A DNA stretch of 41,432 bases from a virus (UHGV-1461890), one strand, 5' to 3'; counted from the first letter of the stretch, positions 2,900-40,267 are shown. The notes: a model not told the origin generated them from the letters alone. Numbers and translations are program-made.

Positions 2900-2905
2900 T
2901 ATGCT

Positions 2906-3289: not shown

Positions 3290-3293
3290 AGAT

Positions 3294-3320
3294 AGGAGGC
3301 TGAAAAGCCTTCTATTTTTT
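3294..3320 (+). terminator. rho-independent terminator-like hairpin after the early gene cluster
   Basis: AGGAGGCT-GAAA-AGCCTTCT stem-loop followed by ATTTTTTAT. Confidence 0.5.
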
Positions 3321-3397
3321 ATGCAGGTAGGGGGGGTTTAGGATTTCATAACCTGTGTATTAAAATATGCGTATAGCAAAGAAGGAAGGAGTTTTCT

Positions 3398-4021
3398 GTG
3401 GATTGGGATTGGAAAAAAGTAAAGTCAGAATATATCACATCAGAAAAGTCAAGCTACAGAAAGCTTGCAGAAAAATATGATATACCACTTGGCACTCTTC
3501 AAAAGAGAGCTAAAAAAGAAAATTGGCCCGACCTCAAAAAACAAAGTGGTGACAGAACGGTTGCAAAAACCATAACAGTCATTGAGAAAAAACAAGTCGA
3601 TAAATTCAAGAGAATTCAAGATATTGCCGACAAGTTGCTCGATAAAATTGAAAAGGCTGTTGATGAGCTTGATATTCATCTTGCAAAGAAAACAATAAAG
3701 ACAAAAGAGATTGAGTATCACAATTATGAAAGACCTGACAAGCCAACGAAGGAAACCATAAACGAAACCGAGGAAATAATTGACTATCACTCTATTATAG
3801 ACCGAAAAGGTGTACAGGAACTTGCTGCCGCAATTAAGAATCTCAAAGAGGTTCAAATGCTTAAATCAGAACTTGATGAAAAAGAGCAAGAGGCACGAAT
3901 TGCTAAGCTCCAAAGGGATGCTGAGATTAACAATAACGATGACAATAAACCTCATGGAGTGGTACTTATGCCTCCTATAATGGACGACTTAACGCCACCG
4001 AAGGAGGAGACAGATGAATAA
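3398..4021 (+). CDS. terS: terminase small subunit
   Basis: GTG start with RBS GAAGGAAGGAG. The N-terminal HTH-like SYRKLAEKYDIPLGTLQKRAKKENW is typical of small terminase subunits. It sits immediately upstream of, and overlaps, the large terminase gene. Confidence 0.7.
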   Translation: MDWDWKKVKSEYITSEKSSYRKLAEKYDIPLGTLQKRAKKENWPDLKKQSGDRTVAKTITVIEKKQVDKFKRIQDIADKLLDKIEKAVDELDIHLAKKTIKTKEIEYHNYERPDKPTKETINETEEIIDYHSIIDRKGVQELAAAIKNLKEVQMLKSELDEKEQEARIAKLQRDAEINNNDDNKPHGVVLMPPIMDDLTPPKEETDE

Positions 4022-5480: not shown

Positions 5481-5481
5481 T

Positions 5482-7485: not shown

Positions 7486-7497
7486 TGAGGTGACTAT

Positions 7498-7842
7498 ATG
7501 ATAAAAGTACAGTTTGAACATCGAAAGGATATAAACACTATCGTTATGAAGGTAGAAGGCCATGCAGGACAAGCCACAAAAGGCAATGATGTTATATGCT
7601 CTGCTGCATCTATCCTCGTATATACGGTAGCACAGTACCTCAACTTTATTTATAAACGAGGAGGCCTTCAGAAGAAGCCTCGTATCCTGCTAAATGACGG
7701 AGATGCGCTGATAGTAGCCAAGCCTAAGAGTGAATTTGAGGGCGAAGTGCTAAACACGTTTTTCGTTGCTGAGGTGGGATACTCGCTACTCGCACACAAT
7801 TACCCACAGTATGTGAAACTTAAAATGTTTGGTGAGGCTTAA
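7498..7842 (+). CDS. prp: Prp-family cysteine protease (ribosomal-processing protease homologue, DUF464)
   Basis: 114 aa with GHAGQATKGNDVICSAAS, placing His22 and Cys34 at the positions of the catalytic dyad of Staphylococcus aureus Prp. Located between portal and scaffold genes. Confidence 0.75.
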   Translation: MIKVQFEHRKDINTIVMKVEGHAGQATKGNDVICSAASILVYTVAQYLNFIYKRGGLQKKPRILLNDGDALIVAKPKSEFEGEVLNTFFVAEVGYSLLAHNYPQYVKLKMFGEA

Positions 7843-7897
7843 AGCCTTAAATATATACCAAAAGTCTCGCTCACTTACGAGCAGAAAGGAAAAATAT

Positions 7898-8863
7898 ATG
7901 ATTCATTTTATCAAACCTATGCACCTAAATCTTCAGCTTTTCGGTGAAGGCACCGGAACAGGTGGAGATGGTGGCACAGGTGCAGAAGGAAGTCAGGGCG
8001 TAACCGAGGTAGCCGCCATACCTCAAATCAAAAGCCGAAAAAGTAATCCTCTTGCTGATACCAAGTATGGTATCCAAGACGATGCAGCACAAGTCGCTGA
8101 TGTGCAAACCAAAGTAACCGATGCAGATGGTGTTACAACTGAAACTGTTGACCGTAATGCTGAATTTGAAAAGCTCATCAAGGGTGAATACAAGGACCTT
8201 TACGATGCCAAAGTTCAGGACACCATTCAAAAAAGGCTTAAAAGCTCAAAGGAAACCGTTGAGAAGTATAACGCTCTCTCCCCTACTCTCGAAATGCTGA
8301 GTAAAAAGTACGGTGTAGATGCTTCTGATATTGATGCCTTAAACAAGGCTATTCAAGAAGACGACTCTTATTATGAGGAAGAGGCCATGGAAAAGGGCAT
8401 CTCCGTACAGCAGTTAAAAGAGATTCGCAGAATGGAAAGAGAAAATGCTGACCTGAAGAGACAAATGCAGGAGCAATCCGTAAAGGAAAATGCTTCAAAA
8501 CTCTACGCTTCGTGGATGAATCAGGCAGAACAGCTTAAAGCGGTTTATCCATCTTTTGACCTTGAAACTGAGATGAGAAATCCAAAATTTGTAGACTTAC
8601 TCCGAGTGCCGAGTATTGATGTAAGAACTGCTTATGAGGTCTTACATAAGGATGAAATAATCCCGGCAGCCATGCAGTTTACTGCTCAGACAGTCGAGCG
8701 TAAACTTGCTAATAAGATAATGGCAAATGGAGCAAGGCCCTCAGAGAATGGTATGAACTCTCAGAGTGCAGCGGTAGTTAAGAGCGATGTGTCACAGCTC
8801 TCCAAAGCCGACCGTCAGGAAATTGCAAGACGTGTCGCACGAGGAGAAAAGATACGATTCTAA
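7898..8863 (+). CDS. scaffolding protein with L27-like N-terminal leader (MIHFIKPMHLNLQLF|GEG)
   Basis: ATG at 7898 with RBS AAAGGA. The N-terminus carries the NLQLF motif resembling the Prp cleavage site. The rest is acidic and coiled-coil-rich and sits upstream of the capsid gene. Confidence 0.65.
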   Translation: MIHFIKPMHLNLQLFGEGTGTGGDGGTGAEGSQGVTEVAAIPQIKSRKSNPLADTKYGIQDDAAQVADVQTKVTDADGVTTETVDRNAEFEKLIKGEYKDLYDAKVQDTIQKRLKSSKETVEKYNALSPTLEMLSKKYGVDASDIDALNKAIQEDDSYYEEEAMEKGISVQQLKEIRRMERENADLKRQMQEQSVKENASKLYASWMNQAEQLKAVYPSFDLETEMRNPKFVDLLRVPSIDVRTAYEVLHKDEIIPAAMQFTAQTVERKLANKIMANGARPSENGMNSQSAAVVKSDVSQLSKADRQEIARRVARGEKIRF

Positions 8864-8926
8864 CTACATCTATCTAATCTCCTTGTAAATACACACAAAT
8901 TACAAAATACAAAGGAGATTAAAACC

Positions 8927-9949
8927 ATGAAAAACATTTTTAAAATCAACCTTCAGCTCTTCGCTGAAATGAACACTCAGGTAACCACACAGTCTTCTCT
9001 CACACCTGAGATGAAGACCTACTATGACATGACCCTCATTGACGAGGCAAGTGCAAAGCTTGTACATGACCAGTTCGGTCAGAAGAAGCCTATTCCAAAG
9101 GGCAGCGGTAAAACCATCGAGTTCCGTAAGTTCTCACCTCTTGGTAAGGCTACCACACCTCTTACTGAAGGTGTTACTCCTAACGGTAACAGCCTGACTG
9201 TAACTGCTATCACCGCTACTGTTGCTCAGTATGGTGACTACATCGTACAGTCTGATGTGCTTGAACTCACCTCTCTCGATAACACAATTATCGAGGCTAC
9301 CAAGCTCTTAGGTAATCAGGCAGGTCTCACTCTTGATACCATCACTCGTAACATTCTTCAGGCAGGTACTAACGTATCATATTGTCCTAAGATTGCTGCT
9401 GACGGTACTGAGACAGAGGTTACATCTCGTGCTACACTCGATGCTACTTGTCAGCTTACTGTTGATATGGTACAGAGAGCAGTAACTAAGCTCAGAGCGC
9501 AGAACGCTCCTACCATTGATGGTGACTATGTTGCTATTATCCATCCTTATGTTGCTTATGACCTCATGAGAGACAAGGAATGGATTGAGGCTCACAAGTA
9601 TGCTACTCCCGAAAACATCTATGCAGGTGAAATCGGCAAGATAGCAGGTTGCCGCTTCGTACAGTCCACCGAGGCTAAAATTTATAAGGGTGATGGTTGT
9701 CCTACAGGCCTTGCTGTATTCGGTACTCTCTTCTTAGGCTCAGGTGCTTATGGTGTAACTGAGATTACAGGCGGTGGTTTGCAGACTATCGTTAAGCAGA
9801 AGGGTTCTGCCGGTACTGCTGACCCACTTGACCAGAGAAGCTCTGTAGGTTGGAAGGCTATTAAGACTGCTGAAAGACTTGTAGAAAACTACATGGTTCG
9901 TGTAGAGTCTTGCTCTAAGAGATACTCTGCAACAGCAGTAGCTAACTAA
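8927..9949 (+). CDS. major capsid protein with L27-like N-terminal leader (MKNIFKINLQLF|AE)
   Basis: 340 aa with RBS AAAGGAGA. It follows the scaffold gene, has the Prp-type leader motif, and is followed by a strong hairpin terminator. Confidence 0.75.
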   Translation: MKNIFKINLQLFAEMNTQVTTQSSLTPEMKTYYDMTLIDEASAKLVHDQFGQKKPIPKGSGKTIEFRKFSPLGKATTPLTEGVTPNGNSLTVTAITATVAQYGDYIVQSDVLELTSLDNTIIEATKLLGNQAGLTLDTITRNILQAGTNVSYCPKIAADGTETEVTSRATLDATCQLTVDMVQRAVTKLRAQNAPTIDGDYVAIIHPYVAYDLMRDKEWIEAHKYATPENIYAGEIGKIAGCRFVQSTEAKIYKGDGCPTGLAVFGTLFLGSGAYGVTEITGGGLQTIVKQKGSAGTADPLDQRSSVGWKAIKTAERLVENYMVRVESCSKRYSATAVAN

Positions 9950-9957
9950 TTAAACTT

Positions 9958-9991
9958 GGGGGAGGGATAACTCCCTTCCCCTTCTCATTTT
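9958..9991 (+). terminator. rho-independent terminator after the capsid gene
   Basis: GGGGGAGGGAT-AA-CTCCCTTCCCC hairpin followed by TTCTCATTTT. Confidence 0.6.
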
Positions 9992-10005
9992 AAGGAGTGA
10001 AATAT

Positions 10006-10254
10006 ATGGCAAATAACACAGCCGCAAATAAACCCGAAGTGGTTAAAGAAAAGATAGTAAAAATCATTGTTCCTAAAACAAGGGAATTGCAAGATGATGT
10101 TTTTGTATCGGTGAATGACCGTACATGGCAGATTCAAAGAGGCGTTGAGGTAGAAGTTCCTGAATGTGTTGTTGAGGTATTAAAACACCAGACAGAAATG
10201 GAAAACATAGCTCTCGCATACGAAGCACAGGCCTCAAGTCCTAAAAATCATTAA
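10006..10254 (+). CDS. small virion-associated hypothetical protein
   Basis: ATG at 10006 with RBS AAGGAGTG. The track's 9997 start lies inside the RBS. Confidence 0.5.
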   Translation: MANNTAANKPEVVKEKIVKIIVPKTRELQDDVFVSVNDRTWQIQRGVEVEVPECVVEVLKHQTEMENIALAYEAQASSPKNH

Positions 10255-10265
10255 GTAAAAAATTT

Positions 10266-10290
10266 GGGGAGTTCTGAAACTCCCCTTTTA
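10266..10290 (+). terminator. hairpin terminator/attenuator inside the late operon
   Basis: GGGGAGTT-CTGA-AACTCCCC followed by TTTTA. Confidence 0.55.
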
Positions 10291-10311
10291 TCAAATTTGG
10301 AGGTAGACACA

Positions 10312-10680
10312 ATGAAGATTATTGAAGCAATACAACAGGTGGATGCTCTCAAGCCTAATAACTATAGTCAGGAAGACAAGATAAAATGGCTGTCTACCCT
10401 TGACGGAATCATTAAAAAGGAAATCATAGATACTCACGAGGGCGGCAACGAAATCGTATTTAACGGATATGATAGTTCTTCACTTGAGACAGAACTGCTT
10501 GTACCGGCACCTTATGATGATATCTATATCAAATGGCTTGAGGCACAGATTGATTATAACAATAGTGAAATAGGAAAATACAACAACAGTATGACTATGT
10601 ATAACTCGGCTTATAGCACCTTTGAAAGATATTACAACAGAACTCACATGCCGATAGGAAAGAAATTTAAATACTTTTAA
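10312..10680 (+). CDS. hypothetical head/connector-region protein
   Basis: ATG at 10312 with RBS GGAGGTAGACACA. The longer track ORF would read through the upstream hairpin. Confidence 0.5.
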   Translation: MKIIEAIQQVDALKPNNYSQEDKIKWLSTLDGIIKKEIIDTHEGGNEIVFNGYDSSSLETELLVPAPYDDIYIKWLEAQIDYNNSEIGKYNNSMTMYNSAYSTFERYYNRTHMPIGKKFKYF

Positions 10681-10691
10681 GGAGGAATATT

Positions 10692-12413
10692 ATGAGACTT
10701 TCAGGACTAACCGAACTTGCTACATCTCGTGATGTGGTAGAGGTGTTTGGTGGATACAATCATAACCTCCGCATAGCCAATTCTGAGTTTTACGATATGA
10801 AAAACCTGACCTCTGATGAATACCCGGTGCTATCTACAAGAAATAAAAGAGGCGTGGTTAAACAATTAGACTCATGCAAAGGAATAACAGCAAAAGGAAA
10901 ACTTGCCTATGTTGAAGGAAAAAAGCTTATATATGGCGATTATGTGCATGAAATTCCTGAACTTACCGATGGAGATAAGCAGCTTGTTTCGTTTGGCGCT
11001 TATTTAATCATCTTCCCTGATGGAATACAATACAATACCCAAACTGATGAGTGGGAACACCTTGAGGCTCATTACAAATCATCAGGTGAGGTTAAGTTTG
11101 AAATGTGCAACATAGAAAGCTCAGCCTATGAATATACATCAGGCCCGACAGCACCGGCAGAAGAAAACGGAAAGTATTGGCTTGACACATCGTCTAGTCC
11201 ACATAGCTTAAAGGTGTACTCTTCTACATCACAAATGTGGAGTACAGTACCAACCTGTTATGTAAAAATATCAGCACTTGGTATAGATGAGCATTTTGAA
11301 CTATATGACGGTATTGAAATAAGTGGTTGCACAGCGCCCGGCACATCTGACCTTAACAGCACGATGGTTATATGGGGAAAAGGCGAAGGATATATCACCG
11401 TTATTGGTGTGTTAGACCACATGGTTACTCAAGAGGATGTTATATCGGTGGATAGAAGCATACCTACTATGGACTTTATAACTGAAAGCGAAAACAGATT
11501 ATGGGGATGCCATTACGGAATTATAGATGGCAAACCTGTAAATGAAATATATGCCTGTAAATTAGGAGATGCAAAGAATTGGAACTGTTTTATGGGAATA
11601 TCCTCGGACAGTTATGCAGTATCTCTCGGTAGTGATGGCGTGTTTACAGGTGCAATAACCCACTTAGGACACCCATTATTCTTCAAAGAAAACTGTATAC
11701 ATAAGATATATGGCAATCTGCCTTCCAATTATCAGGTGAGTACAACCAACTGTAGAGGTGTTCAGCGAGGAAGCGAAAAGAGCCTTGCTATAGTAAACGA
11801 GGTCATTTTATACAAATCTGCTGTGGATGTGTGTGCCTATGATGGCAGCCTTCCTACTTCAGTATCAGATAATCTTGGCTCTGTGAGATATTTTGAAGCT
11901 GTAGCAGGAAGCATCGACGGAAAATATTACATCAGTATGAGAGATGCTGCAAATGAGTGGAACTTATTCGTATTCGATACCATTAAAAATATGTGGCACA
12001 AGGAAGATAATACCCATATAAAAGGCTTTTGTACACTCGGCACAGACCTTTATTTAGTAACCGATGATAACGCCCTGATGACTACAACAGGCACAGGAGA
12101 GACCAAAGAATCGAAGATTAAGTGGTTTGCAGAGACAGGTAGCATAGGTTATAGCTATCCAGATAACAAATATCTGTCAAAACTTAATGTCAGAATGACT
12201 CTTAATGTTGATAGCTCGGTGGCATTGTACATACAGTACGATTCGTTTGGAGAGTGGGAGCGTAAGTGGAGTATGAATGGTGTAGGCACAAGGTCCTTTA
12301 CCATACCTATTATCCCTAAGAGATGCGACCATTTTAAGATAAGATTTGAAGGTGAAGGAGATTGCAGAATATTCTCCATTGCTAAAATGCTTGAGATGGG
12401 AAGTGATGTGTAA
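10692..12413 (+). CDS. virion structural protein (putative tail/hub component)
   Basis: 573 aa with RBS AAGGAGG in the late operon. No recognisable motif; function inferred from position only. Confidence 0.45.
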   Translation: MRLSGLTELATSRDVVEVFGGYNHNLRIANSEFYDMKNLTSDEYPVLSTRNKRGVVKQLDSCKGITAKGKLAYVEGKKLIYGDYVHEIPELTDGDKQLVSFGAYLIIFPDGIQYNTQTDEWEHLEAHYKSSGEVKFEMCNIESSAYEYTSGPTAPAEENGKYWLDTSSSPHSLKVYSSTSQMWSTVPTCYVKISALGIDEHFELYDGIEISGCTAPGTSDLNSTMVIWGKGEGYITVIGVLDHMVTQEDVISVDRSIPTMDFITESENRLWGCHYGIIDGKPVNEIYACKLGDAKNWNCFMGISSDSYAVSLGSDGVFTGAITHLGHPLFFKENCIHKIYGNLPSNYQVSTTNCRGVQRGSEKSLAIVNEVILYKSAVDVCAYDGSLPTSVSDNLGSVRYFEAVAGSIDGKYYISMRDAANEWNLFVFDTIKNMWHKEDNTHIKGFCTLGTDLYLVTDDNALMTTTGTGETKESKIKWFAETGSIGYSYPDNKYLSKLNVRMTLNVDSSVALYIQYDSFGEWERKWSMNGVGTRSFTIPIIPKRCDHFKIRFEGEGDCRIFSIAKMLEMGSDV

Positions 12414-13129
12414 TGGCATTTACATTTACTCCTCCCAATATTACAGGAGCCACGCCTGAGGCTCAGCTTAAATCAATGCAATCATGGTTGTTTCAGTTTG
12501 GAGAACAGCTCCAATATGCAATAAACAACCTTGACACCTCTAATTTTAGTCAGGGTGGCCTTGAGGAAATATCAGGTGCAAAGGCTACATTACAAGCTAA
12601 AGGTGGTAACCTCGAAGAGTTTGATGCCCTTAAATCCCTTATTATAAAAACCTCTGATACAGTTCATTCATATTTTGAAGAGGTAACCGAGACACTTAAT
12701 AGTGATTACCTTGCTATTTCTGATTTTGGTGAGTATAGCGAAAGTAACAAGGCAGAGATAGTTAAAAATGCTTTAGGAGTTACTCAAAACTATTCAAGAA
12801 TAGAAGAGGCTTTTAAGAAATTAGACTCGGTAGAGACATCGTTTAATGCCTATGTAATAAAAACTAACGCCTACATCCGCACAGGTTACCTAGAGCAGCT
12901 TGACACCTATGGCGTTGCAATAGGCGAAGAAAAAACAGAAACGATTGATGGTGTAGAGGCTGTAACATTTAATCAATTTGCTACATTGACATCCGAAGAA
13001 CTCGCCTTTTGGCAGAATGGTGTTAAACTAGGATATTTTAAGGGTGATAGTTTGTTTGTCAACGGTGCTATCCGTATAGGAAGATGGGCCATAGATATAT
13101 CCGGTGGCTTTAGTATTAAATACGTTTAA
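12413..13129 (+). CDS. virion structural protein (putative)
   Basis: 238 aa with start overlapping the upstream stop (TAATG). Confidence 0.45.
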   Translation: MAFTFTPPNITGATPEAQLKSMQSWLFQFGEQLQYAINNLDTSNFSQGGLEEISGAKATLQAKGGNLEEFDALKSLIIKTSDTVHSYFEEVTETLNSDYLAISDFGEYSESNKAEIVKNALGVTQNYSRIEEAFKKLDSVETSFNAYVIKTNAYIRTGYLEQLDTYGVAIGEEKTETIDGVEAVTFNQFATLTSEELAFWQNGVKLGYFKGDSLFVNGAIRIGRWAIDISGGFSIKYV

Positions 13130-13141
13130 AGGAGGGATTGT

Positions 13142-14698
13142 ATGGGTTCAACATATCAAGCACACATAAGCAAATTTACTCCATCCATTGTGGTAAATGG
13201 CACAAATAAAATAGATGTCACCGTAGCATTTACTAATGTACAAACAGGAGAACTTGGATACGAAAATGATTTATATATTAAATTTGGTGACAGGTATTTA
13301 TATAAATACCTTGACACAACATCCTCATCACCTCAAACTTTTTCTTTTACCATTCCTGTTGATTGGTTAAATGAAATCCCTGATAAATCTGTGGCAACAG
13401 GCACAATAGAGTTAACGTGTCTAGATGTATATGCTTTTGAAGTTGCATATAAAGAAACTAAACCCTTCACAATATATGTTCCCGAAGAGTATAAGCCTAC
13501 AGTATCTAATTTGTCGGTAAGCTTCGGTGATATACGAAGTATGCTTGTTGATTATGCACTTTATGGATTGACAACTCCTCGTGCAAGAGCATTTGTACAA
13601 CCTCATTCTACTTCGCCTATAAAAAAATGGTACATTGCAGGCGGTGGCGTTATTGCTTCAGGGGAAGACCCTGATATATCAGACAATAATGACTATAACT
13701 TTTCGGAACGAGGAGAACTCATTAAAGCATTGAGCCACACAACATTCACCTTGACGGTGGAAGATGCACGAGGCAGAACCGCTTCCATAGAATCGGAGCA
13801 GTTTTATGTTCAATCATATCACCGACCTATAGTTAAGAGCCTATCTGCTTATCGCACAGATAAGGATGGTATTGCCAAAGCAGACGGAGACTACATCAAG
13901 GTTACTGTTGAAGGAGCAAAGTCTTCAATAAAGGATAGCGAGGATAATGAGTGCAATAGTCTGGCGTGTTATGTGGATTGGAAAGAGGCTAATGGCTCAT
14001 ATAGTAATTTTGCTGATATAACCAATAACGAACCTTTTATCTTTGAGGCTAAAAAAGATACGAACTTTGAAATAAAGTGTACGCTCCGGGATAAATATAT
14101 GGAAACTGTAGCTTATGCCAACGTAATAGGTGATAACAAAGATTTTAATATTGCTGATGGTGGCGGTGGTGCTGCTATAGGCATGAAGGCTACTAAGGAT
14201 TACTTTGATGTATTACATAAAACCCGTTTACAAAAGAACCTAAGTGCTAAAGGTACTATTTCATCAGAAAAAGGCTTAGTTAGTACAGGTACAGGCAGTA
14301 AAGGAGACTTCCTTTCGTTTGGTAAGGCAGAAAGAATATTTACAGACTATCACCAAACCGCTGAAGGAAATTGGGTTGTTAATATTTGGGGTGATTTTAA
14401 TGATTGCACATCATTAGGCTTATATGGAGTTTACAATAACAACGATGTGTCATCTTCCAATTATTACAAGGTAGCAAATGCTCCTTGTGAAAAGGCAGGT
14501 ACATTAAGAGTGTATTGCGCCAATGGTGATATGGATGAATCCTCAACCTACCGATACATAATGCAAGAATATGTGGTATATGACGGTAGTGCAGTATACC
14601 GAAGGTGTTTATCTAAAACTCGTGACAATTCAGATGTAGAATGGCCTGCAAATTGGACATTTGGCAGCTGGTATCGTTACTCAGGAACAAAAGTTTAA
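13142..14698 (+). CDS. virion structural protein (putative)
   Basis: 518 aa with RBS AAAGGAGGG. Confidence 0.45.
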   Translation: MGSTYQAHISKFTPSIVVNGTNKIDVTVAFTNVQTGELGYENDLYIKFGDRYLYKYLDTTSSSPQTFSFTIPVDWLNEIPDKSVATGTIELTCLDVYAFEVAYKETKPFTIYVPEEYKPTVSNLSVSFGDIRSMLVDYALYGLTTPRARAFVQPHSTSPIKKWYIAGGGVIASGEDPDISDNNDYNFSERGELIKALSHTTFTLTVEDARGRTASIESEQFYVQSYHRPIVKSLSAYRTDKDGIAKADGDYIKVTVEGAKSSIKDSEDNECNSLACYVDWKEANGSYSNFADITNNEPFIFEAKKDTNFEIKCTLRDKYMETVAYANVIGDNKDFNIADGGGGAAIGMKATKDYFDVLHKTRLQKNLSAKGTISSEKGLVSTGTGSKGDFLSFGKAERIFTDYHQTAEGNWVVNIWGDFNDCTSLGLYGVYNNNDVSSSNYYKVANAPCEKAGTLRVYCANGDMDESSTYRYIMQEYVVYDGSAVYRRCLSKTRDNSDVEWPANWTFGSWYRYSGTKV

Positions 14699-14719
14699 AA
14701 TCTATAGGAGGAATGGTAA

Positions 14720-15901
14720 ATGGGAGATTTTAAGTATAAAGAATTTAAGTATGATGATTGGAAATATGATGACTATGTTGAGAGTGAGCAGGTCAACAAA
14801 TACAAGTACAATCTAGACAATCACAACTCATCAAAACCGGGCGAATATCAATCAAAGTATCAGGCTGTGGCTGATGAGGTCCTAAACAACTATATGAATA
14901 GAGATAAGTTCTCTTATGATATTAACGGAGATGCACTCTATCAGCAGTACAAGGATAAATTTATGACACAGGGCAAGTTAGCATCTCAGGATGTAATGGC
15001 TCAGGCTGCTGCTATGACAGGTGGCTATGGTAACTCTTATGCCGCAACAGTAGGCAATCAGGCATATCAAGCCTCGTTGCAGAATCTTAATGATGTTGTT
15101 CCTGAACTATACCAAATGGCATATAACCAATATCAGCAAGAAGGTCAGGATATGCTCAATAAATATAGCATCTATGCGGATAGAGAAAATACCGAGTATG
15201 GTAGATATAGAGATTCTGTGGCTGATTGGCAGAGCGAAAGAGAATACCTTACCAACCTTTACAATACTGAGAGGTCTTGGGATTATAGCAAATACTCCGA
15301 TAATCGCAACTTTGATTATGGTGTATATTCCGATGATAGAAACCTCGCCTATACTCAGTATGATAGCGACAGGAACCTTGCTTACACCGACTATAGAAAT
15401 GATATAGCAGACCAACAATGGCAGGCAACATTTGATGAAGGTGTAAGACAGTATAACCAAAATTATGAATATCAGGTAGGTCGAGATAAAGTTGCAGACC
15501 AACAATGGCAGGATACCTTTAACCAAGCTCTTGCTGAATTTGGTTATCAGAAAGAGAGAGACACAATCGCAGACCAACAATGGCAGGATAGCTATGATTT
15601 ACAGGCAGAACAAATTCGTAATAATGAAAAGGCTGCTGCTTATGATGCTATTGTTAAGTCTGAAGAAAATGTTAAAAATGCGAAGAGCAAGATATTGTCT
15701 ATACACGATTTCCTAAACAATGCTACAAAAAATGTAATTACTCGTGGAAATAGAGGAAATACAGGTAATGGTGGCACAACATATACTTACAACAAAAAGA
15801 CCTACAACACATATACCGACTATGTTTTTGATGTTCTTGATGGCTTGAATTTAACAGATGATGAAATGGCAACCGTACTCAAGGATTTAGGCCTTGCATA
15901 A
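14720..15901 (+). CDS. Tyr/Gln/Asp-rich repeat protein (putative internal/ejection protein)
   Basis: 393 aa with RBS ATAGGAGGAA. Contains three copies of an IADQQWQ(D/A)(T/S)(F/Y) peptide repeat and NLAYT(Q/D)Y repeats. Confidence 0.45.
   Translation: MGDFKYKEFKYDDWKYDDYVESEQVNKYKYNLDNHNSSKPGEYQSKYQAVADEVLNNYMNRDKFSYDINGDALYQQYKDKFMTQGKLASQDVMAQAAAMTGGYGNSYAATVGNQAYQASLQNLNDVVPELYQMAYNQYQQEGQDMLNKYSIYADRENTEYGRYRDSVADWQSEREYLTNLYNTERSWDYSKYSDNRNFDYGVYSDDRNLAYTQYDSDRNLAYTDYRNDIADQQWQATFDEGVRQYNQNYEYQVGRDKVADQQWQDTFNQALAEFGYQKERDTIADQQWQDSYDLQAEQIRNNEKAAAYDAIVKSEENVKNAKSKILSIHDFLNNATKNVITRGNRGNTGNGGTTYTYNKKTYNTYTDYVFDVLDGLNLTDDEMATVLKDLGLA
15407..15587 (+). repeat. three exact copies of GCAGACCAACAATGGCAGG (spacing 87 and 75 nt) inside the 14720..15901 CDS
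   Basis: 19-mer at 15407, 15494 and 15569 encodes ADQQWQ. Confidence 0.8.
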
Positions 15902-15916
15902 TAAGGAGGGCAAATT

Positions 15917-18900
15917 ATGGGAGCTAAAGATGTATATGAGCAGTTAAAACGAGAAAAACAACAAGGCAATTCTAAAGCCAAAAAAGTCTACGCTCAAATG
16001 ATGCAATCTAAAATAATAGATGAATTCAATTCTCTTATAAAGCATAATTCGGACTTTTACAATAAAACCAAGTCTCGTTTTTATGACGAAGATGACAACT
16101 TTATAGACATCTATCGTTCTGATTCAGAAGATTGGAAAAACACAGCGGTTTCCATGTCAAGTTCTGCTAGAGAAAAGTCTACAAATATAAGAAGTTTGCT
16201 GGATGAATATGGTTCGTATTATGATGCGGATACTGTATCGAGTATGTTAAAAACCCTTGATGAGCATGAAAAATTCTCTACTGACATTGTAAAACAAGCG
16301 GTAGAACAACATGACTATTTTTCCGAGTATAAAGACGAGAATGACTACAACCAAAAGGTTGTTATACCTAAAAATCAAAATGAAGAGTGGGCCTCAGCCA
16401 ATACTGAGGCTCTGAAAACTGAGATTGGCAACCTTGAAACATCTTATAAGGCATATTCAGAACTTAAATCAAAGAGAAATTTAAGAAGTTCTCAGCTTAT
16501 ATCCAACTATATAAAGTCAGGTTATACGAGAGATGAGGCAGTAAAATTAGCCGCTAAAGACAAGGATATTATCGAATACGATAAAAAGTTATCTGTTTAT
16601 GGAGATATGAGTAATGCTGAAAAATCTCTCTCCGAAAAGAAGCAGTTTTACAACAATGCCACTCGTGTTCAGGAAGGCTTATCTTTAAGCGGAATAACTG
16701 ACCCTTCATCCAAGCACTATGACCCAAATTATCTCAAGTATTCAGCAAAAGGTGAGGCTATGGGTGATGAGAAAAACGGTGGTTTTTTTACACCTGATAC
16801 TCAGCGCAAAAACCAAGTGGCTTACCTCCGTAACAATCCCGATATGTTGGAACTGTATGAAGAAACTGCCAACGATGCTAATGGCGCATCATGGGGAACT
16901 TCCGAAAGAATATTACTAGACCAAATTGAATATAAAGCCGCTAAGTATATGACAGATGAAGAGTTTTTAATTTACAATGCCTACTTAGGCAAGGGAGACA
17001 AAGAATCGGCTGATAAATATTTGGAGAGTATAGAGGAGACTTTAACCTCTCGTCAGGGTGCGGCGATTTCTGAACAGCAAGATACTTGGCTTAAAAAACA
17101 ATTATTTAGCGTTTATGCAGGACTCGACCAATGGGAACAAGGCATTATCAGTTTAGGTAACACCGAAGGAAAATATGACTCCCCTACAGGCGTACAGTTT
17201 GCCTCAGGCACAATAAGAGAAGACTTGGGTGCAATCGGTCAAGGTGCTTATGACTTAGGCGTTACTACAGGAAACATGCTCCCATCCATTTTGGTTTCAT
17301 ATCTCACAAGTGGTGTTGGTGGTGCAGTAGGTTTAGGCGCAAAGGCAGCAGGAACACTAGGCAAAGTAGCCGGTGCCGCAACCTTGGGAAGCTCGGCAGC
17401 AGGTAATGGTTATCAGGAAATGCTCAACCTTGGCTATGATAAGAGTCAGGCACAGGCTTATGGCACTCTTGTAGGCCTTTCCGAAGCAGGTCTTGAGTAT
17501 GTATTGGGTGGTATTTCATCCCTTGGTGGTACGGTTTCAGGTGGCATAACTGACAAGGTCGTTACTAAGTTAGTTTCTAACATGGATAAGGCTATCGCTA
17601 AGGTAGCCATTGGCGCAGGTGGTAAACTTGTAGGTAGTATGGTATCTGAATTTGGAGAAGAATACCTGCAAGAAGTATTAGACCCGGTATTTAAAAACAT
17701 AACGCTTAACACCGATGAGGATATAAGGTTATTCTCCTCCGAGGCTCTTTATGCAGGTATACTAGGTGCATTGTCAGCAGGTTTGCTTGAGGGTGGTTCG
17801 AGTATATCAGGTGAGGTTGCAACCTATAAAGCAGGTAAGGATGTTAAGAACACAGGTCAGTTAAGTAACCTTAAAAAGTTCGGCACATCATTTTCTGCTG
17901 ATACCGTTGCATATAAGATTGCAAGTCAGGTTGATGAGAACACCGATGCTTATACCATAGGTCAGCTGCTACATGAAGTGGGCGCAGATAGTTTATCTGA
18001 AGCAAATATAGCTGACATAGTAAAATCTCTTGAGAGGAAAAACATATCTCCCGAACACGCTCAAACCATTGCTGAGTGGTTAAACGCTTCTGTTCAAGGT
18101 GAGGTATTTAATCCTCTTCAGCGATTAGCTTTAAAAAATCCTGATATAGCACAAACCTTTAAGGATGTTATTATAAACCAGAACTCTACAGTAAATCAAA
18201 GGATGCAGAGTTATACCGACATCCTTCAAAATATCGCCAATGAAAAGGAAATTATAAAGGCTAACAAAAGCAAAGCAAAGGCTGAGAAGAAAGCTAATAA
18301 AACCAAAACAACCGAAGAAACAAAAACTACACCTTTTGTTCCTTTGTCTAATGAAGCAATTACTGCTTCTAAGATAGAATCACTAGCAAAAGAACTTGAA
18401 AGCGAAGGTGTATCACCTGAATTGGCTCAGGTTATGGCTCAGAGGAAGGTTTCTGAATCTTCAGAGGGTAAATCTGTTGCCGATACTGAAAATGCTATAG
18501 AGAACAAATTTGAAACCAATTTAGATGGACAAACACTCAACACAAAAACAGGTGATAGTGTTAATGTGTCTGAAATAGCCTCTATAAAAGATGGCAAAAT
18601 GACCTTAAAACTTGACAATGGTGAAACTGTAGATGCAGACGATATTAGTTTTGGTACTGAAGATGAGGGTTTAATCTATTCGACAGTATTAGACATGGGT
18701 GTTAATGCCGCTGTAGCAAACTCTCTTGTAAAAAATTACAGTCCATCGGACAAGCTCTCAGCAAGACAATATGCTCTTGGCATTAAAGAGGCATATAAGT
18801 ATGGCTCTTATGGTATGCCTATAAACGAAATATCTAAAAACGGTTTTGCCGCTGATTTAAGTGAGGCTCAGAGGACTCATGCCTATAACCTTGGCAAATC

Positions 18901-27337: not shown

Positions 27338-29203
27338 ATGAATTATGCAGTATATAATATTGCTCTTGACATACATAAGACAGGCTCTCAGGTAGCCTTG
27401 CCTATGATAAGAGGCGAGAACAAAAGAAAAATAGTTATCTCTCTTACCGAAAATGGTAGGCCATATAAAATAGCAAGTGGCTGCACAGCAAAGTTTGCAG
27501 CCTTTAAGCCTGACGGAAAACCTATTTATAACGATTGTGTTGTAGATATAGAAAACAATCTCATAATTTACACCATTACTTCTCAGACAACAGCAGTTAT
27601 GGGTGAAGTAAAGTGCCAAATTGAACTTATTGGAACTGATGACGGTTTACTCTTCTCCCCTACATTCAGCCTTATAGTTGCAGATAAATTATATAACCAA
27701 GAGCCTATATTAGCCTCATCCGAGGAGTTTAATGCTCTTACTGCCTATGTTGCTGACCTTCAGAAAAAACTTGATAATGGCGAGTTTAAAGGTGATAAGG
27801 GTGACAAGGGAGATAGGGGAGACCGAGGACCTCAAGGTGTTCAGGGTGATACAGGTCCTGCCGGTAAAGATGCAGACTCCTCTTCCCTATCTCCATCTAT
27901 TATATGTACCGAAAAGGGAACTGCAATTACTATTTCGGATAGTTCTGAGTCGGGATTTGAGGCTTTTAGCATATATGGAAGGTCCACTCAGAATGGAACA
28001 CCGACACCTTCGGCACCTGTAAACATTGCCTCGGTTGGTGATGATGGAAAGATTATTGCCGGTGTACAAGACAAAACTAATATATTTGATACTGTGTTCA
28101 CAAGCGGTGGCATTACTCAAGATACAGGAAAAGAATTCGTTGATACTACATTACAACGAACGGATTATATTTCCGTTAAGGAAGGGTCTATCTATAAAAT
28201 ATCAGGGTTAGGTGGCCCGGTCAGAATATTCTGTTACAATGCAAACAAAGTGTTTTTGTCCTCAATTTATGGAACGACAGGCGAATGGTTTGTTGTTCCA
28301 ACATCATGTGCTTTTATTAGATTTCATATAGTAATAGCTAATTACAACAAAGACTTGAAGGTAAATCGAATTAATGCAATAACCTTAGAAAATCGTGTGT
28401 TAAGAGCCATCCCTGTCACCGACTCAAGCCTCGCTACATACACCGATACTAACGGTCAAATGTGGTGCGCTGATGAGATAGACTTTGAGAGAGGAGTTTA
28501 TATTCAAAGATGCTATACTGAAACTATATCAATGACGTATGAAGAAGCAAATAACCGATATATAGGGGAAATAAGTAAAAATGCCAACTCGAAAATATCA
28601 AATAGCATTGGGATAATTGTTCTTACCGATAAATTGCCTTATAACGAGAATGCAGGAAAGATAGACGAAGCAGTGAATGGTGTGCGTGTATCTTACGGAA
28701 ACAAAAAAGCGGTAATTGCTTACTTTAATGACGAGGTCATATCTTCGCTCAATATTCTCTATCCGTTAGAGATATCAATCGAAACACCTTTAACCTCAGA
28801 ACAAATTGCAGCATACAAGGCCCTGAAGACAAATTACCCATCTACAACCATATTAAATGATGAAAATGCATTTATGAAGGTGGGATATAGAGCTGATACT
28901 AAGAAGTTTATAGAGAAAATGTCAGGCTCGACTACTCAGATTTCTTCCGTTACTCTTGCTGCTTCAAAATGGGTAGGCACAGCAAGTCCATATTCTCAGG
29001 TTGTGACAGTTCCGGGTGCTACTAAAAACAGCAAGATAGACCTTAACCCTTCCGTTGCTCAGCTTGGTATCTTCCATAATAAAGATATTTCCTTTGTGGT
29101 TGAAAATGATGACGGAGTAATAACGGTATATTGCATAGGTCAGAAACCTACAAACGATTACACAATACAAGCCACAATTACGGAGGTGTATGTAAATGGC
29201 TAA
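27338..29203 (+). CDS. tail fibre / receptor-binding protein with BppU-like N-terminus and short collagen-like G-X-Y repeat
   Basis: ATG at 27338 with RBS GGAGGG at 7-nt spacing. GDKGDKGDRGDRGPQGVQGDTGPAG lies at nt ~27791-27868, followed by a beta-rich C-terminal region. Confidence 0.65.
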   Translation: MNYAVYNIALDIHKTGSQVALPMIRGENKRKIVISLTENGRPYKIASGCTAKFAAFKPDGKPIYNDCVVDIENNLIIYTITSQTTAVMGEVKCQIELIGTDDGLLFSPTFSLIVADKLYNQEPILASSEEFNALTAYVADLQKKLDNGEFKGDKGDKGDRGDRGPQGVQGDTGPAGKDADSSSLSPSIICTEKGTAITISDSSESGFEAFSIYGRSTQNGTPTPSAPVNIASVGDDGKIIAGVQDKTNIFDTVFTSGGITQDTGKEFVDTTLQRTDYISVKEGSIYKISGLGGPVRIFCYNANKVFLSSIYGTTGEWFVVPTSCAFIRFHIVIANYNKDLKVNRINAITLENRVLRAIPVTDSSLATYTDTNGQMWCADEIDFERGVYIQRCYTETISMTYEEANNRYIGEISKNANSKISNSIGIIVLTDKLPYNENAGKIDEAVNGVRVSYGNKKAVIAYFNDEVISSLNILYPLEISIETPLTSEQIAAYKALKTNYPSTTILNDENAFMKVGYRADTKKFIEKMSGSTTQISSVTLAASKWVGTASPYSQVVTVPGATKNSKIDLNPSVAQLGIFHNKDISFVVENDDGVITVYCIGQKPTNDYTIQATITEVYVNG

Positions 29204-40199: not shown

Positions 40200-40267
40200 A
40201 TACTTTAGGTGGGAAATGTTAGATAAACCACTTCAATATAAAATTATGTTTTAAAGGAGGCTGAGTG

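Follow-up and report, generated by a model that had tools for sequence, protein, structure and literature searches.

A giant polyvalent protein encoded in the virion module of a temperate, podovirus-like phage

Introduction

In T7 (gp14, gp15 and gp16) and P22 (gp7, gp20 and gp16), the ejection-protein genes are flanked by tail genes on one side and the fibre or tailspike gene on the other. Size and synteny are the usual grounds for assigning a protein to this group, and its members have regions that insert into membranes. Many podoviruses that infect Gram-negative bacteria encode them, and the phi29-like phages of Gram-positive bacteria lack them (PMC8954989). The polyvalent proteins of Iyer et al. 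(PMC5512222) combine unrelated enzymatic domains in one huge late-gene polypeptide, with zincin metallopeptidase (MPTase), H-Y-D ADP-ribosyltransferase (ART) and MuF_C/PBECR domains as hubs, and are described as highly mosaic. Self-processing by the MPTase and an Alt-like role for the ART are hypotheses of those authors; the word 'linker' is absent from the main text of their paper, and 'cleavage site' occurs only in a reference title. P1 DdrB, which carries an MPTase, is proteolytically processed, and the N4 virion RNA polymerase (vRNAP) is packaged unprocessed (PMC5512222).

Two further systems are close to the protein described here. The 2,811-aa polyvalent protein gp47 of phi24B (LPD5/LPD1/LPD38/MuF-C) is abundant in virions by mass spectrometry, absent from the cryo-EM density, and has been put forward as a packaged ejection protein (bioRxiv 10.64898/2026.04.10.717836). 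In C. (Enterocloster) clostridioforme LM41, the prophages phi1 and phi4 contain polyvalent-like 8-kb ORFs that take up about 20% of a genome of about 41 kb, and particles are released spontaneously; that study gave no domain dissection of the giants (PMC11318856).

Here, we analyse a 3,782-aa protein encoded by UHGV-1461890, a 41,432-nucleotide stretch of viral DNA referred to below as the window. Proteins of this polyvalent kind are already known (Iyer et al. 2017, PMC5512222); the family to which the present giant belongs has not been dissected.

Results

The open reading frame and its genomic setting

The giant ORF starts with ATG and runs for 3,782 codons without an internal stop, occupying 27.4% of the window (Table 1), in line with the initial annotation; the consensus ribosome-binding site noted there is also present, directly after the stop codon of the preceding gene. 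Because a GC content of about 38% gives about 6–7% stops among random codons, an open frame of this length does not arise by chance. A 31-kb ENA contig that shares 25,151 of 25,152 bases with the window encodes the same 3,782-aa protein, and the homologue P0111 (3,860 aa) is collinear with the giant end to end at 66–71% identity.

The ORF shares its strand with the terminase, portal and capsid genes and is part of a tightly spaced virion operon. As first described, it is placed between structural genes (a DUF859-type tail protein and a 393-aa ORF, positional counterparts of which carry PG_binding_1 in relatives) and the fibre gene; relatives have their giant gene in the corresponding slot. The phage carries a P22-type portal, a serine recombinase and CI-type repressors, and no tape-measure, tube, sheath or chaperone genes were found among the virion-module ORFs scanned. 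The earlier view of a temperate phage without a tape-measure gene thus holds, and a podovirus-like phage with the giant in its virion module is supported. The giant itself as tape-measure protein was rejected, given the P22-type portal and the lack of tube, sheath, chaperone and tape-measure families in the scanned virion-module ORFs.

Table 1. Features of the giant ORF and its neighbours (nucleotide positions in the window)
Feature	Position	Strand	Remark
Upstream neighbours: DUF859/phrog_372 tail protein and 393-aa ORF	13142..15901	+	Define the slot
Ribosome-binding site AAGGAGG	15903..15909	+	7 nt 5' of ATG; sequence reading
Giant ORF, 3,782 aa and stop codon	15917..27265	+	Identical protein on independent ENA contig; collinear homologue P0111
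N-terminal charged region, aa 1-339	15917..16933	+	Poorly conserved
Gly/Ala-rich, low-charge hydrophobic glycine-zipper block, aa 430-660	17204..17896	+	Candidate membrane-inserting segment
HExxH module, aa 1014-1267; HELTH at nt 19238-19252	18956..19717	+	Very probably a divergent MPTase-PolyVal-type zincin-like metallopeptidase
Linker motif 1, KLQARE, aa 1268-1273	19718..19735	+	In segment of pLDDT <50 (model residues 276-291)
MuF_C-like (PBECR RNase-fold) accessory module, aa 1284-1459	19766..20293	+	Probable; sub-threshold in window copy
Linker motif 2, KLSGRE, aa 1495-1500	20399..20416	+	In low-pLDDT segment (model residues 500-524)
Central domain, aa 1543-2121, Cys-containing, enzyme-like	20543..22279	+	Family signature
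Linker motif 3, KLSDRD, aa 2162-2167	22400..22417	+	
ART-PolyVal domain (predicted ADP-ribosyltransferase), aa 2188-2354; H2198, Y2223, D2317	22478..22978	+	PF18760
Linker motif 4, RYSERD, aa 2360-2365	22994..23011	+	
Helical accessory module (m2510), aa 2506-2644	23432..23848	+	24 homologues in first sets; 18/148 representatives
Linker motif 5, KFQDRD, aa 2512-2517	23450..23467	+	
C-terminal core module, aa 2811-3741, mostly alpha-helical, unmodelled family	24347..27139	+	Conserved SRRxQGxxHLLGGG
Most hydrophobic helix of the giant, aa 3529-3554	26501..26578	+	Candidate membrane segment
Downstream neighbour: BppU_N and collagen-repeat fibre or receptor-binding protein	27317..29203	+	

Core modules

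The N-terminal charged region is covered by only 1–7 homologous sequences, has a BLAST match in 38 of the 148 family representatives, and gave no match past threshold in a Pfam search. The glycine-zipper block that follows, noted in the initial annotation, proves to be conserved across the family: a block with a G+A fraction of at least 0.30 is found near residue 420 in 114/148 representatives. In the giant, the G+A fraction is 0.35 in aa 401–500, only 8 of the 106 residues in aa 440–545 are charged, and hydrophobic 19-mers occur at aa 455–476 and 605–625. The block contains 7 GxxxG and 20 [GAS]xxx[GAS]xxx[GAS] patterns, GxxxG being 9 times as dense as elsewhere in the protein. A coiled coil of about 600 aa could not be substantiated: a crude heptad scan picks out nine short segments that total 344 residues, compared with about 106 residues in shuffled sequences.

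The HELTH motif at aa 1108–1112 is present as first read and is the sole HExxH of the giant, in a module conserved in about 69 relatives. The downstream Glu of FEQYG, proposed earlier as zinc ligand, is not conserved among homologues. A better candidate for the third ligand is the conserved helix AYEEVVADSME at about aa 1164–1174, some 55 aa past HELTH, in which one of the Glu residues would bind the metal. In the predicted model, HELTH lies on a helix (model residues 118–133) after strands at 68–107, and AYEE..ADSME on a helix at 176–193, with pLDDT of about 75–94; this is the MPTase layout of an HExxH helix after a three-stranded sheet, followed by a Glu-bearing helix. The window copy matches no zincin-family profile, PF18818 included, at E<=10. 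Among 30 aligned members, MPTase-PolyVal (PF18818) is matched by 7 (best 6.1e-5), Peptidase_M78 by 5, DUF6782 by 4 and eCIS_core by 3, most of these matches being below curated cut-offs, and fold similarity to solved zincins is marginal. Judged through its homologues, the module is very probably a polyvalent-type zincin, and the earlier metallopeptidase assignment stands at that strength.

The central domain has 39 invariant columns, including D-S-C-KR, CxxCYVE..R, G-R-S-SD, YTK, TG..N.S and IP.H, and shows no Pfam match above noise and no match to PDB sequences. Like the C-terminal module, it matches no Pfam, NCBIfam or PDB entry; the suggestion that the domain set may be undescribed is partly right.

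In the C-terminal module, the most hydrophobic helix (Kyte-Doolittle 19-mer maximum 1.74) is next to an acidic patch, RDDDDEE, which is conserved across the family as RDDD(D/E)E. The stretch RRDQGKQHLLGGG, at about aa 3106–3118, is present as quoted in the initial annotation, where it was taken as MuF-like; it belongs to an RRDQG..HLLGGG motif conserved within the unmodelled C-terminal family. A MuF-like C-terminus (about aa 2860–3782) is unsupported, as 11 family members give no Phage_Mu_F (PF04233) signal in this region at E<=10, and no structural match was found to any solved phage virion protein structure. Nor does the module resemble known ejection, portal-associated or MuF proteins.

Accessory modules

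The only MuF-related signal in the giant is instead located at aa 1284–1459. Pfam MuF_C (PF18819) scores 13.5 and 12.1 bits on the window copy (E 0.078 and 0.22, aa 1351–1442), below the cut-off of 27.6, while P0026 (29.2 bits) and P0032 (28.9 bits) match at about 1e-6 in the same aligned region. The module is therefore named MuF_C-like, and not a member. MuF_C is matched by 9 of 30 alignment members, and the segment is predicted by AF2 to form an alpha/beta domain (pLDDT about 73–94), so that a MuF_C-like PBECR fold is probable. It is rare in the family (6/148).

The ART domain is an ART-PolyVal member, assigned by profile: PF18760 matches the whole protein with 77.8 bits (E 1.8e-21) and the segment alone with 84.9 bits (E 1.1e-23), both above the cut-off of 31.2, and profile positions 1–139 of 140 are covered. 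The initial annotation had recognised the fold from YHGTS (aa 2197–2201) and GTGSYFTD (aa 2219–2226), but placed it in the H-Y-E class. The intact triad consists of H2198 in YHGT, Y2223 in GSYF and D2317 in GYDG, and the class is accordingly H-Y-D; in 23 aligned sequences, D2317 (gYDG) is conserved at >=90%, and H2198 and Y2223 at >=60%. An active-site H in strand 1, Y in strand 2 and D in strand 5 define the Tox-ART-HYD2 clade (PMC5512222), to which the predicted ADP-ribosyltransferase of the giant belongs.

A recurrent motif at module boundaries

The peptide [KR][YFL][SQ]x-R-[DE] occurs five times in the giant, where 0.09 copies are expected and none of 2,000 shuffles reaches five. All five copies are at module boundaries and use different codons, which indicates selection on the peptide. 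Among homologues, 53 copies are found against 3.1 expected. In the representatives, 92 of 93 copies are outside the module envelopes, which make up 48% of residues. The usual distance from the edge of an ART or m2510 envelope is 6–13 residues. The motif is commoner in proteins with accessory modules (p = 0.002) and absent from minimal 2.7-kaa relatives. These copies are candidate processing sites. The strict motif is near 28 of 62 ART modules in representatives and absent in many family members; cleavage there would therefore not be the general processing mode of the family. The phage Prp protease was excluded as processor, since its own LNLQLF-type sites occur in the capsid and scaffold proteins but not in the giant.

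The family of giants

An exhaustive HMMER search with the central domain gave 2,513 protein clusters at E<1e-3, of which 2,016 pass E<1e-30, most of the top matches being proteins of 3,000–4,700 aa on 41–47-kb contigs. The giant thus belongs to a family of comparable proteins that is very large and has hardly been studied, and its size is not the exception it had been taken for; the 8-kb ORFs of the C. clostridioforme LM41 prophages (PMC11318856) also speak against rarity.

The core of the giant has the order glycine-zipper N-terminal region, zincin-type HExxH module, Cys-containing central domain and a helical C-terminal module of about 930 aa with its hydrophobic helix; the MuF_C-like, ART and small helical modules are accessory inserts. 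The module order mpt, central, (art), (m2510), cterm is fixed in all 148 representatives, whose median length is 3,456 aa. The cargo slot spans 118–1,704 aa and may hold an ART (47/148) or a Dcm methylase. Relatives also carry the polyvalent domains MuF_C, LPD3, PBECR3/5 and ADPrib_exo_Tox, and the minimal relatives have the HExxH and C-terminal modules only.

Discussion

Comparison with known systems

The giant combines an ART-PolyVal domain, a zincin-type HExxH module, a MuF_C-like module and two unmodelled conserved modules in one polypeptide, encoded among virion genes in a slot conserved in relatives. This is the architecture of the polyvalent proteins, as the initial annotation proposed, and the hub domains (an H-Y-D ART, a very probable zincin MPTase and a probable MuF_C/PBECR-like module) are shared, as are the LPD3, PBECR3/5 and DNA methylase domains of the giant's relatives (PMC5512222). 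The two differ in that polyvalent proteins are described as highly mosaic (PMC5512222), whereas the giant family has a fixed HExxH–central–C-terminal core and a single main cargo slot. Unlike the polyvalent hubs, the central and C-terminal modules fall outside the Pfam LPD, PBECR and MuF models.

The best functional analogue is phi24B gp47, since both are giant polyvalent proteins of temperate podoviruses. phi24B differs in its Gram-negative host, in the LPD set, and in that no ART is reported for gp47; BLAST-level homology was not found either, since no Stx phage was among the tblastn matches when all three parts of the giant were searched in 50,697 phage records. The LM41 prophages resemble the giant's phage in being temperate and podovirus-like, in residing in gut Clostridia and in having one giant ORF, but their giants are shorter (about 2.7 kaa). 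A 2,674-aa protein of Enterocloster lavalensis has a C-terminal module 32% identical to that of the giant, and lacks the central domain, ART, MuF_C module and linker motif. The LM41 giants probably belong to the same family as this protein.

N4 gp50 and other Schitoviridae vRNAPs are also giants (about 3,500 aa). They contain a zincin MPTase, are carried inside a podovirus capsid and leave it along with the DNA (PMC5512222, PMC13434306, PMC11445570), and some relatives have an ART as well (PMC5512222). N4 is lytic, with a genome of about 70 kb, as opposed to the temperate 41-kb phage studied here, and no T7-like RNA polymerase module was detected in the giant by Pfam or PDB match. With the T7 and P22 ejection proteins, the giant shares the gene slot, alpha-helical character and hydrophobic regions, which in the giant are candidate membrane-inserting segments, but in T7 and P22 there are three proteins in place of a single polypeptide, and no sequence or fold similarity to them (T7 gp14–16, P22 gp7/20/16) was found.

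The cultured temperate podovirus F116 of Pseudomonas has two adjacent giant late genes, p59 (2,129 aa, 'methyltransferase') and p60 (1,649 aa). The latter matches the ART of the giant (30.6% identity by tblastn, module HMM E 1e-21) and has two HExxH motifs, and the linker motif is absent. F116 differs from the giant's phage in its two genes, the lack of central and C-terminal modules, and the Gram-negative host. For action right after injection, the packaged ART T4 Alt and the packaged DNA methylase P1 DarB provide a functional model for the proposed cargo; these, like P1 DdrB, are injected enzymes that modify the host or counter restriction (PMC5512222), although Alt is an R-S-E ART outside polyvalent proteins, as opposed to the H-Y-D ART within one seen here.

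Proposed role

On balance, and with moderate confidence, we favour the reading that the giant is one polyvalent polyprotein of a temperate podovirus of gut Clostridia, which is packaged, ejected and cleaved at the motif, and has an ART acting on a target in the infected cell. The giants probably travel inside the virus particle and enter the host alongside the DNA. The protein would be made late and packaged in the capsid, in the slot of the P22/T7 ejection or internal-core proteins, and at infection would leave through the portal and tail, before or with the DNA. Its hydrophobic segments may help to form or anchor a conduit across the single membrane of the Gram-positive host. The zincin would then cut the polyprotein at the [KR][YFL][SQ]x-R-[DE] sites flanking the accessory modules, which would free the ART, or a C5 DNA methylase in relatives, into the cytoplasm, where the enzyme could modify host targets or shield the incoming DNA ahead of phage gene expression.

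The motif can also be read differently, as a boundary element of mobile domain cassettes (a cap, a packaging docking peptide or a recombination junction), in which case the zincin would target host proteins, or nothing. Pre-toxin boundary motifs of polymorphic toxin systems have such roles. The motif moves together with the accessory modules. The family is mosaic, P0118 being 75% identical to the giant in the central domain and 64% in the C-terminal module, but only 26% in the N-terminal region, and many HExxH-bearing members lack the motif altogether. Recombination junctions are disfavoured by the lack of DNA-level similarity between the five copies, and the copy at aa 1268 follows the core HExxH module, so that the motif is not confined to cargo modules. 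The copies that can be checked are moreover in predicted disordered linkers, like protease sites. We regard a boundary element as possible, if rather doubtful.

Somewhat less likely, in our estimate, is that the giant is mainly a structural protein for genome delivery (an ejectosome or tape-measure substitute) that stays uncleaved, its enzymes serving envelope penetration and not counter-defence; the metallopeptidase could, for example, cut peptidoglycan cross-links. The invariant core in 148/148 sampled relatives, as opposed to the optional ART (47/148), the reduction of minimal 2.7-kaa relatives to the HExxH and C-terminal modules, the conserved glycine-zipper block and hydrophobic C-terminal helix, and the ejection-protein slot of the gene all agree with such a role. 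The phi24B authors have proposed envelope penetration for the gp47 metallopeptidase (bioRxiv 10.64898/2026.04.10.717836), and N4 vRNAP provides a precedent for packaging without processing (PMC5512222). An ART-PolyVal domain with intact triad, or the Dcm methylase of relatives, has however no obvious role in wall penetration, for which the 393-aa ORF (PG_binding_1 in counterparts) is the likelier wall-binding or wall-hydrolysing virion protein. The peptide-level motif around the cargo modules would require a separate explanation, and the fold does not resemble that of T7 gp15 or gp16.

It is improbable that the giant remains unpackaged and acts in the producer cell or lysogen, for instance to attack competitors or exclude superinfecting phages in the manner of a MuF-type or polymorphic toxin-like ART. 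Although P0004 joins ADPrib_exo_Tox and PBECR3 domains, the giant gene is surrounded by closely packed, co-directional genes of the virion operon and occupies a conserved slot between tail and fibre genes. No immunity-like gene was seen adjacent to it, the fibre gene being next, reading the sequence by eye brought up neither a signal peptide at the N-terminus nor a secretion domain, and the comparable phi24B protein is packaged.

A chimeric assembly, or a set of genes joined by sequencing errors, is hardly conceivable as the source of the ORF: the slot is split into 1,796-aa and 1,148-aa genes beside an A7 run in relative L004, a sign that the gene exists both whole and divided in the family, or that sequencing errors affect it, but the independent contig gives the identical protein with 1 difference in 25,152 bases, P0111 is collinear over the full length, and more than 100 representatives of 3–4.7 kaa have the same module order.

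Implications

The polyvalent-protein reading with ART and zincin, first made by eye, can hold, with corrections to the ART clade, the zinc ligand, the location of the MuF-related signal and the supposed rarity. The giant offers a way into an abundant, unannotated family in phages of human-gut and other Clostridia, each member taking about a quarter of the genome that encodes it. More speculatively, the family (at least 2,500 clusters, typically 3–4.7 kaa, in 41–47-kb genomes) might be the ejection apparatus of podoviruses with P22-type portals that infect Gram-positive gut Clostridia, in the form of a single self-processing polyprotein with glycine zipper, zincin, a new Cys-rich enzyme domain, a helical conduit or anchor, and a swappable cargo slot (ART, Dcm methylase, others) bounded by the cleavage motif [KR][YFL][SQ]x-R-[DE]. 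Cultivable lysogens exist in Enterocloster lavalensis KCTC 15153 and C. clostridioforme LM41 (phi1/phi4), which makes the predictions testable. If true, the model would define a protease and site pair together with a new enzyme domain, and explain how short-tailed phages of Gram-positive hosts deliver their DNA and how they inject enzymes for counter-defence or host takeover.

Integrity of the giant reading frame

The giant gene is a single unbroken frame that occupies 27.4% of the window (coordinates of all features are collected in the table). Because about one in 15 random codons would be a stop at the window GC content of ~38%, an open frame of this length is not due to chance. An AAGGAGG sequence is found 7 nt 5' of the start codon, immediately 3' of the stop codon that ends the preceding ORF. 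An ENA contig of 31 kb has a single mismatch to the window in 25,152 bases and encodes a protein identical to the giant, and the homologous protein P0111 (3,860 aa) is collinear with it end to end at 66–71% identity; a mis-assembly is very unlikely. All sequence strings quoted in the initial annotation (HELTH, YHGTS, GTGSYFTD and RRDQGKQHLLGGG) are present. The Gly/Ala-rich glycine-zipper block that it described is also real, with a G+A fraction of 0.35 in residues 401–500, only eight charged residues in 440–545, and a GxxxG density nine times that elsewhere in the protein. The proposed coiled coil of ~600 residues is unconfirmed: in a crude heptad scan, 344 residues are marked, compared with ~106 in shuffled sequences.

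Coordinates of features in the window, in the giant protein and in related loci
Feature	Sequence	Position	Remarks
Tandem repeat	Window (nt)	1–47	~2.5 copies of an 18-nt unit (CTGGCGATGGCTCTGGCT)
Prp-type cysteine protease	Window (nt)	7498–7842	PF04327
Scaffold candidate	Window (nt)	7829–8863	Listed start TTG
HK97-type capsid protein	Window (nt)	8927–9949	
phrog_511 ORF	Window (nt)	10692–12413	573 aa
ORF directly upstream of giant	Window (nt)	14720–15901	393 aa; no family match
AAGGAGG	Window (nt)	15903–15909	
Giant ORF	Window (nt)	15917–27265	+ strand; ATG start; 3,782 codons
C5 cytosine DNA methylase ORF	Window (nt)	39486–40199	Stand-alone; Pfam profile 2–167/324
ORF after methylase	Window (nt)	40265–41014	
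HExxH module	Giant (aa)	1014–1267	
HELTH	Giant (aa)	1108–1112	
MuF_C-like module	Giant (aa)	1284–1459	
Central domain	Giant (aa)	1543–2121	
ART module	Giant (aa)	2188–2354	PF18760
YHGTS and GTGSYFTD	Giant (aa)	2197–2226	
Helical module	Giant (aa)	2506–2644	
C-terminal module	Giant (aa)	2811–3741	
RRDQGKQHLLGGG	Giant (aa)	near 3106	
Hydrophobic helix	Giant (aa)	3529–3554	
Linker motif, five copies	Giant (aa)	1268, 1495, 2162, 2360, 2512	
Two HExxH modules	P0004 (aa)	504–752, 1019–1265	
PG_binding_1 ORF	L002 (nt)	8842–9990	
PG_binding_1 ORF	L004 (nt)	3065–4456	
ToxN/RHH_1	L002 (nt)	16979–17758	
Split giant slot	L004 (nt)	4470–13447	Junction near 9850–10000
p59 and p60	Phage F116, L010 (nt)	47838–59199	

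Modules of the giant protein

HELTH is the only HExxH motif in the giant, and the module that contains it is the most widely shared, being covered by up to 69 homologues. In an alignment of 57 sequences, HELxH is at least 90% conserved, as are several positions of an AYEExxADSME helix ~55 residues downstream; the downstream Glu (FEQYG) named in the initial annotation is not conserved among homologues. An AlphaFold2 model based on a 30-sequence alignment has a confident core (pLDDT ~75–94), with helix, sheet, HExxH helix and acidic helix in the order expected for a zincin. A Foldseek search against the PDB gave no informative match. Pfam matches among the 30 aligned members are to MPTase-PolyVal (seven, best 6e-5), Peptidase_M78 (five), DUF6782 (four) and eCIS_core (three). 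Because every recurrent family apart from MuF_C is a zincin, we consider the module probably a divergent MPTase-PolyVal-type zincin, the support coming via the homologues and not from a profile match of the window copy itself. A metagenomic protein of 1,696 residues (P0004) has two HExxH modules interleaved with ADPrib_exo_Tox, PBECR3 and LPD3, and exemplifies the multi-MPTase architectures described by Iyer et al.

ART-PolyVal is the sole above-threshold Pfam match on the whole giant (E 1.8e-21 for the whole protein, 1.1e-23 for the segment), and supports the earlier assignment of an ADP-ribosyltransferase domain. The proposed H-Y-E class does not hold, since the triad, which is intact, is H-Y-D: in an alignment of 23 relatives, Asp2317 (GYDG) is conserved in at least 90%, and His2198 (YHGT) and Tyr2223 (GSYF) in at least 60%. 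H-Y-D is the configuration given by Iyer et al. for the ARTs of polyvalent proteins (PMC5512222), and those defining features of ART-PolyVal that can be read from sequence are all present. A MuF-like C-terminus, as originally suggested, is rejected, there being no Phage_Mu_F homology. In the AlphaFold2 model the MuF_C-like module is a confident alpha/beta domain. Its match to MuF_C stays below threshold (E 0.078 and 0.22), and in two homologous proteins, P0026 and P0032, the region aligned to the module exceeds the MuF_C cut-off. MuF_C is the PBECR RNase-fold domain (PMC5512222).

Among sequences with 26–37% identity, 39 columns of the central domain are invariant, an enzyme-like pattern that includes the motifs D-S-C-KR, CxxCYVE..R, G-R-S-SD, YTK, TG..N.S and IP.H. 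No Pfam match above noise and no PDB sequence match was obtained for this domain. A two-barrel RNA polymerase, considered on account of an LDFDG sequence, was discarded as the motif is partly conserved, lacks a third Asp and is accompanied by no RNA polymerase match. Sequence and profile searches of the PDB with the whole giant and with HExxH, central and C-terminal profiles returned nothing meaningful, and NCBIfam gave no match for the giant or five neighbouring ORFs. No likeness of the C-terminal module to any known ejection protein was found, and the giant as a whole showed no homology to tape-measure or ejection proteins.

A widespread mosaic family

Database homologues were gathered by segment and profile searches. 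Among GenBank phages, megablast with the giant ORF gave no match, and tblastn with the giant in three parts identified only F116 and vB_PaeM_USP_25, both in the ART region, and two unannotated faecal fragments. Run exhaustively with HMMER, the profile of the central domain retrieved 2,513 clusters (50% identity), of which 2,016 have E<1e-30. The best 150 of these are nearly all 3,000–4,700 residues long, with the central domain near residues 1,200–1,900, and 148 of them were scored with HMMs of the giant's modules. The central domain is present in all 148 representatives, the HExxH module in 136, the C-terminal module in 127, the ART module in 47 and the small helical module in 18; a Gly/Ala-rich block near residue 420 is found in 114. 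The order HExxH, central, (ART), (helical), C-terminal is fixed in 147/148. It follows from the cluster number, lengths and shared order that the giant's size is typical of a very common, unannotated family; the initial annotation had regarded a protein this large as unusual. The longest copies of the contigs of ten representatives measure 41–47 kb in eight cases.

The family is mosaic. A variable cargo slot of 118 to 1,704 residues separates the central domain from the C-terminal module, and in two homologues (P0119 and P0130) a full Dcm-type C5 DNA methylase resides inside the giant in place of the ART. The core is conserved, with the ART and MuF_C-like modules inserted into it as accessories, and relatives of 2.7 kaa consist of the HExxH and C-terminal modules only. 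Divergence is also uneven along the protein, homologue P0118 being 75% identical to the giant in the central domain, 64% in the C-terminal module and 26% in the N-terminal part. In one related locus, L004, two genes of 1,796 and 1,148 aa occupy the giant's slot. The first of their frames stops directly after an A7 run (GACATGAAAAAAACGTAG), and another frame is open across the junction; a programmed frameshift, a genuine division into two genes or an error in sequencing could be the cause.

Gene context in the phage

The virion genes are, in order, the large terminase, a P22-type portal, a Prp cysteine protease, a scaffold candidate, an HK97-type capsid protein, a phrog_511 'internal virion protein', a DUF859 tail protein, a 393-aa ORF, the giant and a BppU_N/collagen fibre. 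An Amidase_3-SPOR endolysin, a large serine recombinase, CI-type repressors and RecT/YqaJ are encoded elsewhere in the window. Judged by the ORFs scanned, the phage was correctly described as temperate, short-tailed and lacking a tape measure. Relatives were found in an Oscillospiraceae MAG, a Eubacteriales MAG and the cultured Enterocloster lavalensis KCTC 15153.

Canonical Prp cleavage motifs are located N-terminally on the major capsid protein (MKNIFKINLQLF/AEMN) and the scaffold candidate (MIHFIKPMHLNLQLF/GEG), the latter suggesting that the true start of the scaffold candidate is an internal ATG ~23 codons downstream of the listed TTG. The phrog_511 match (E 3e-68) covers the C-terminal 317 residues of its ORF, a second candidate for a packaged or ejected protein in the virion module. 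Positional counterparts of the ORF directly upstream of the giant contain PG_binding_1 in two relatives, pointing to a protein of the virion that binds or hydrolyses the cell wall. In the relative with P0075 (locus L002), a ToxN (PF13958) and a faint RHH_1 gene lie directly downstream of the giant, before the fibre genes, and resemble a moron of the abortive-infection or toxin-antitoxin type located among the virion genes. Of the Pfam profile, the methylase ORF of the window spans just the N-terminal half, and the ORF that follows is not the missing half. No terminal overlap was found between the window ends.

A linker motif at module boundaries

The giant contains five copies of the motif [KR][LYFIV][SQ]x-R-[DE], against 0.09 expected; none of 2,000 shuffles reached five. 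The five sites match module boundaries found independently from homologue coverage: copies flank the MuF_C-like and ART modules, and one precedes the helical module. Both sites covered by the first AlphaFold2 model have pLDDT <50. The first 85 homologues contain 53 copies against 3.1 expected, and in the representatives 92/93 copies fall outside module envelopes, though these envelopes account for 48% of residues. The extended consensus is approximately N-P-T-S-D-P-D-[IV]-[KR]-[YFL]-S-[DE]-R-D. Proteins with accessory modules have 0.93 copies each compared with 0.41 for those without (p = 0.002), and the motif is usually 6–13 residues from accessory-module edges. It is nearby in only 28/62 ART modules, many family members do not have it, and none was found in the minimal 2.7-kaa relatives or in the ART-bearing F116 p60.

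We infer that the motif is a candidate for the site recognised by the zincin of the giant itself. Iyer et al. proposed that polyvalent proteins yield functional units through MPTase cleavage and described no site (PMC5512222); the word 'linker' is absent from the main text of that paper, and a literature search with the motif peptides gave no relevant match. A recombination scar or recent duplication is disfavoured, because the five copies use different codons, showing that it is the peptide that is conserved. A motif general to ART-PolyVal cassettes is rejected by its absence from F116 p60, and Prp as the responsible protease is rejected since the giant has none of the Prp-type LNLQLF sites carried by the capsid and scaffold proteins.

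Proposed mechanism and relation to known systems

The gene slot of the giant, between tail and fibre genes, is conserved, and in P22 and T7 this is the place of ejection or internal-core genes. Because of this match, together with packaged precedents, the giant may be packaged in the capsid. Ejection proteins are commonly assigned by size and synteny (PMC8954989). Mass spectrometry of phi24B, a temperate podovirus, showed its polyvalent protein gp47 (2,811 aa) to be abundant in virions, and the protein is invisible in cryo-EM maps (bioRxiv 10.64898/2026.04.10.717836), and N4 vRNAP, T4 Alt and the P1 Dar proteins are classical packaged and injected cases (PMC5512222). The giant would exit through the tail at infection, where the glycine-zipper block and the hydrophobic C-terminal helix may help to build or anchor a channel in the host membrane. 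The zincin could then free the cargo modules at the linker motif, and the ART would modify host targets, or the methylase of relatives protect DNA, ahead of phage gene expression. Two observations weigh against this model: the C-terminal module is unlike known ejection proteins, and the motif is missing from many members of the family. A tentative reading, which we regard as possible rather than probable, is that phages of Gram-positive hosts have here one ejection polyprotein that processes itself and offers a swappable cargo slot.

Assignment to the polyvalent-protein class, as first proposed, agrees with all defining features accessible from the sequence. The giant is not the first of its kind, because such proteins are already on record. 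Giant ORFs were noted in LM41 phi1/phi4, ~41-kb podovirus-like prophages of gut Clostridia, with a length of 8 kb, about 20% of the genome, and faint LPD3 similarity, and the hypothesis of Iyer et al. was invoked (PMC11318856). The cultured podovirus F116 differs from the window phage in having two adjacent giant late genes, one of them ART-bearing, instead of one gene. In F116, p59 (2,129 aa) is annotated as a methyltransferase, and p60 (1,649 aa) has two HExxH motifs and tandem matches to the ART module; combined they amount to 3,778 aa, upstream of the lysis cassette. The giant is thus a further example of an already known kind of protein. The suggestion that its domain set may be undescribed holds in part, for the unmodelled central and C-terminal modules. 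The literature compared gives no description of these two modules, nor of the core architecture with its fixed order, the family's size or the boundary motif.
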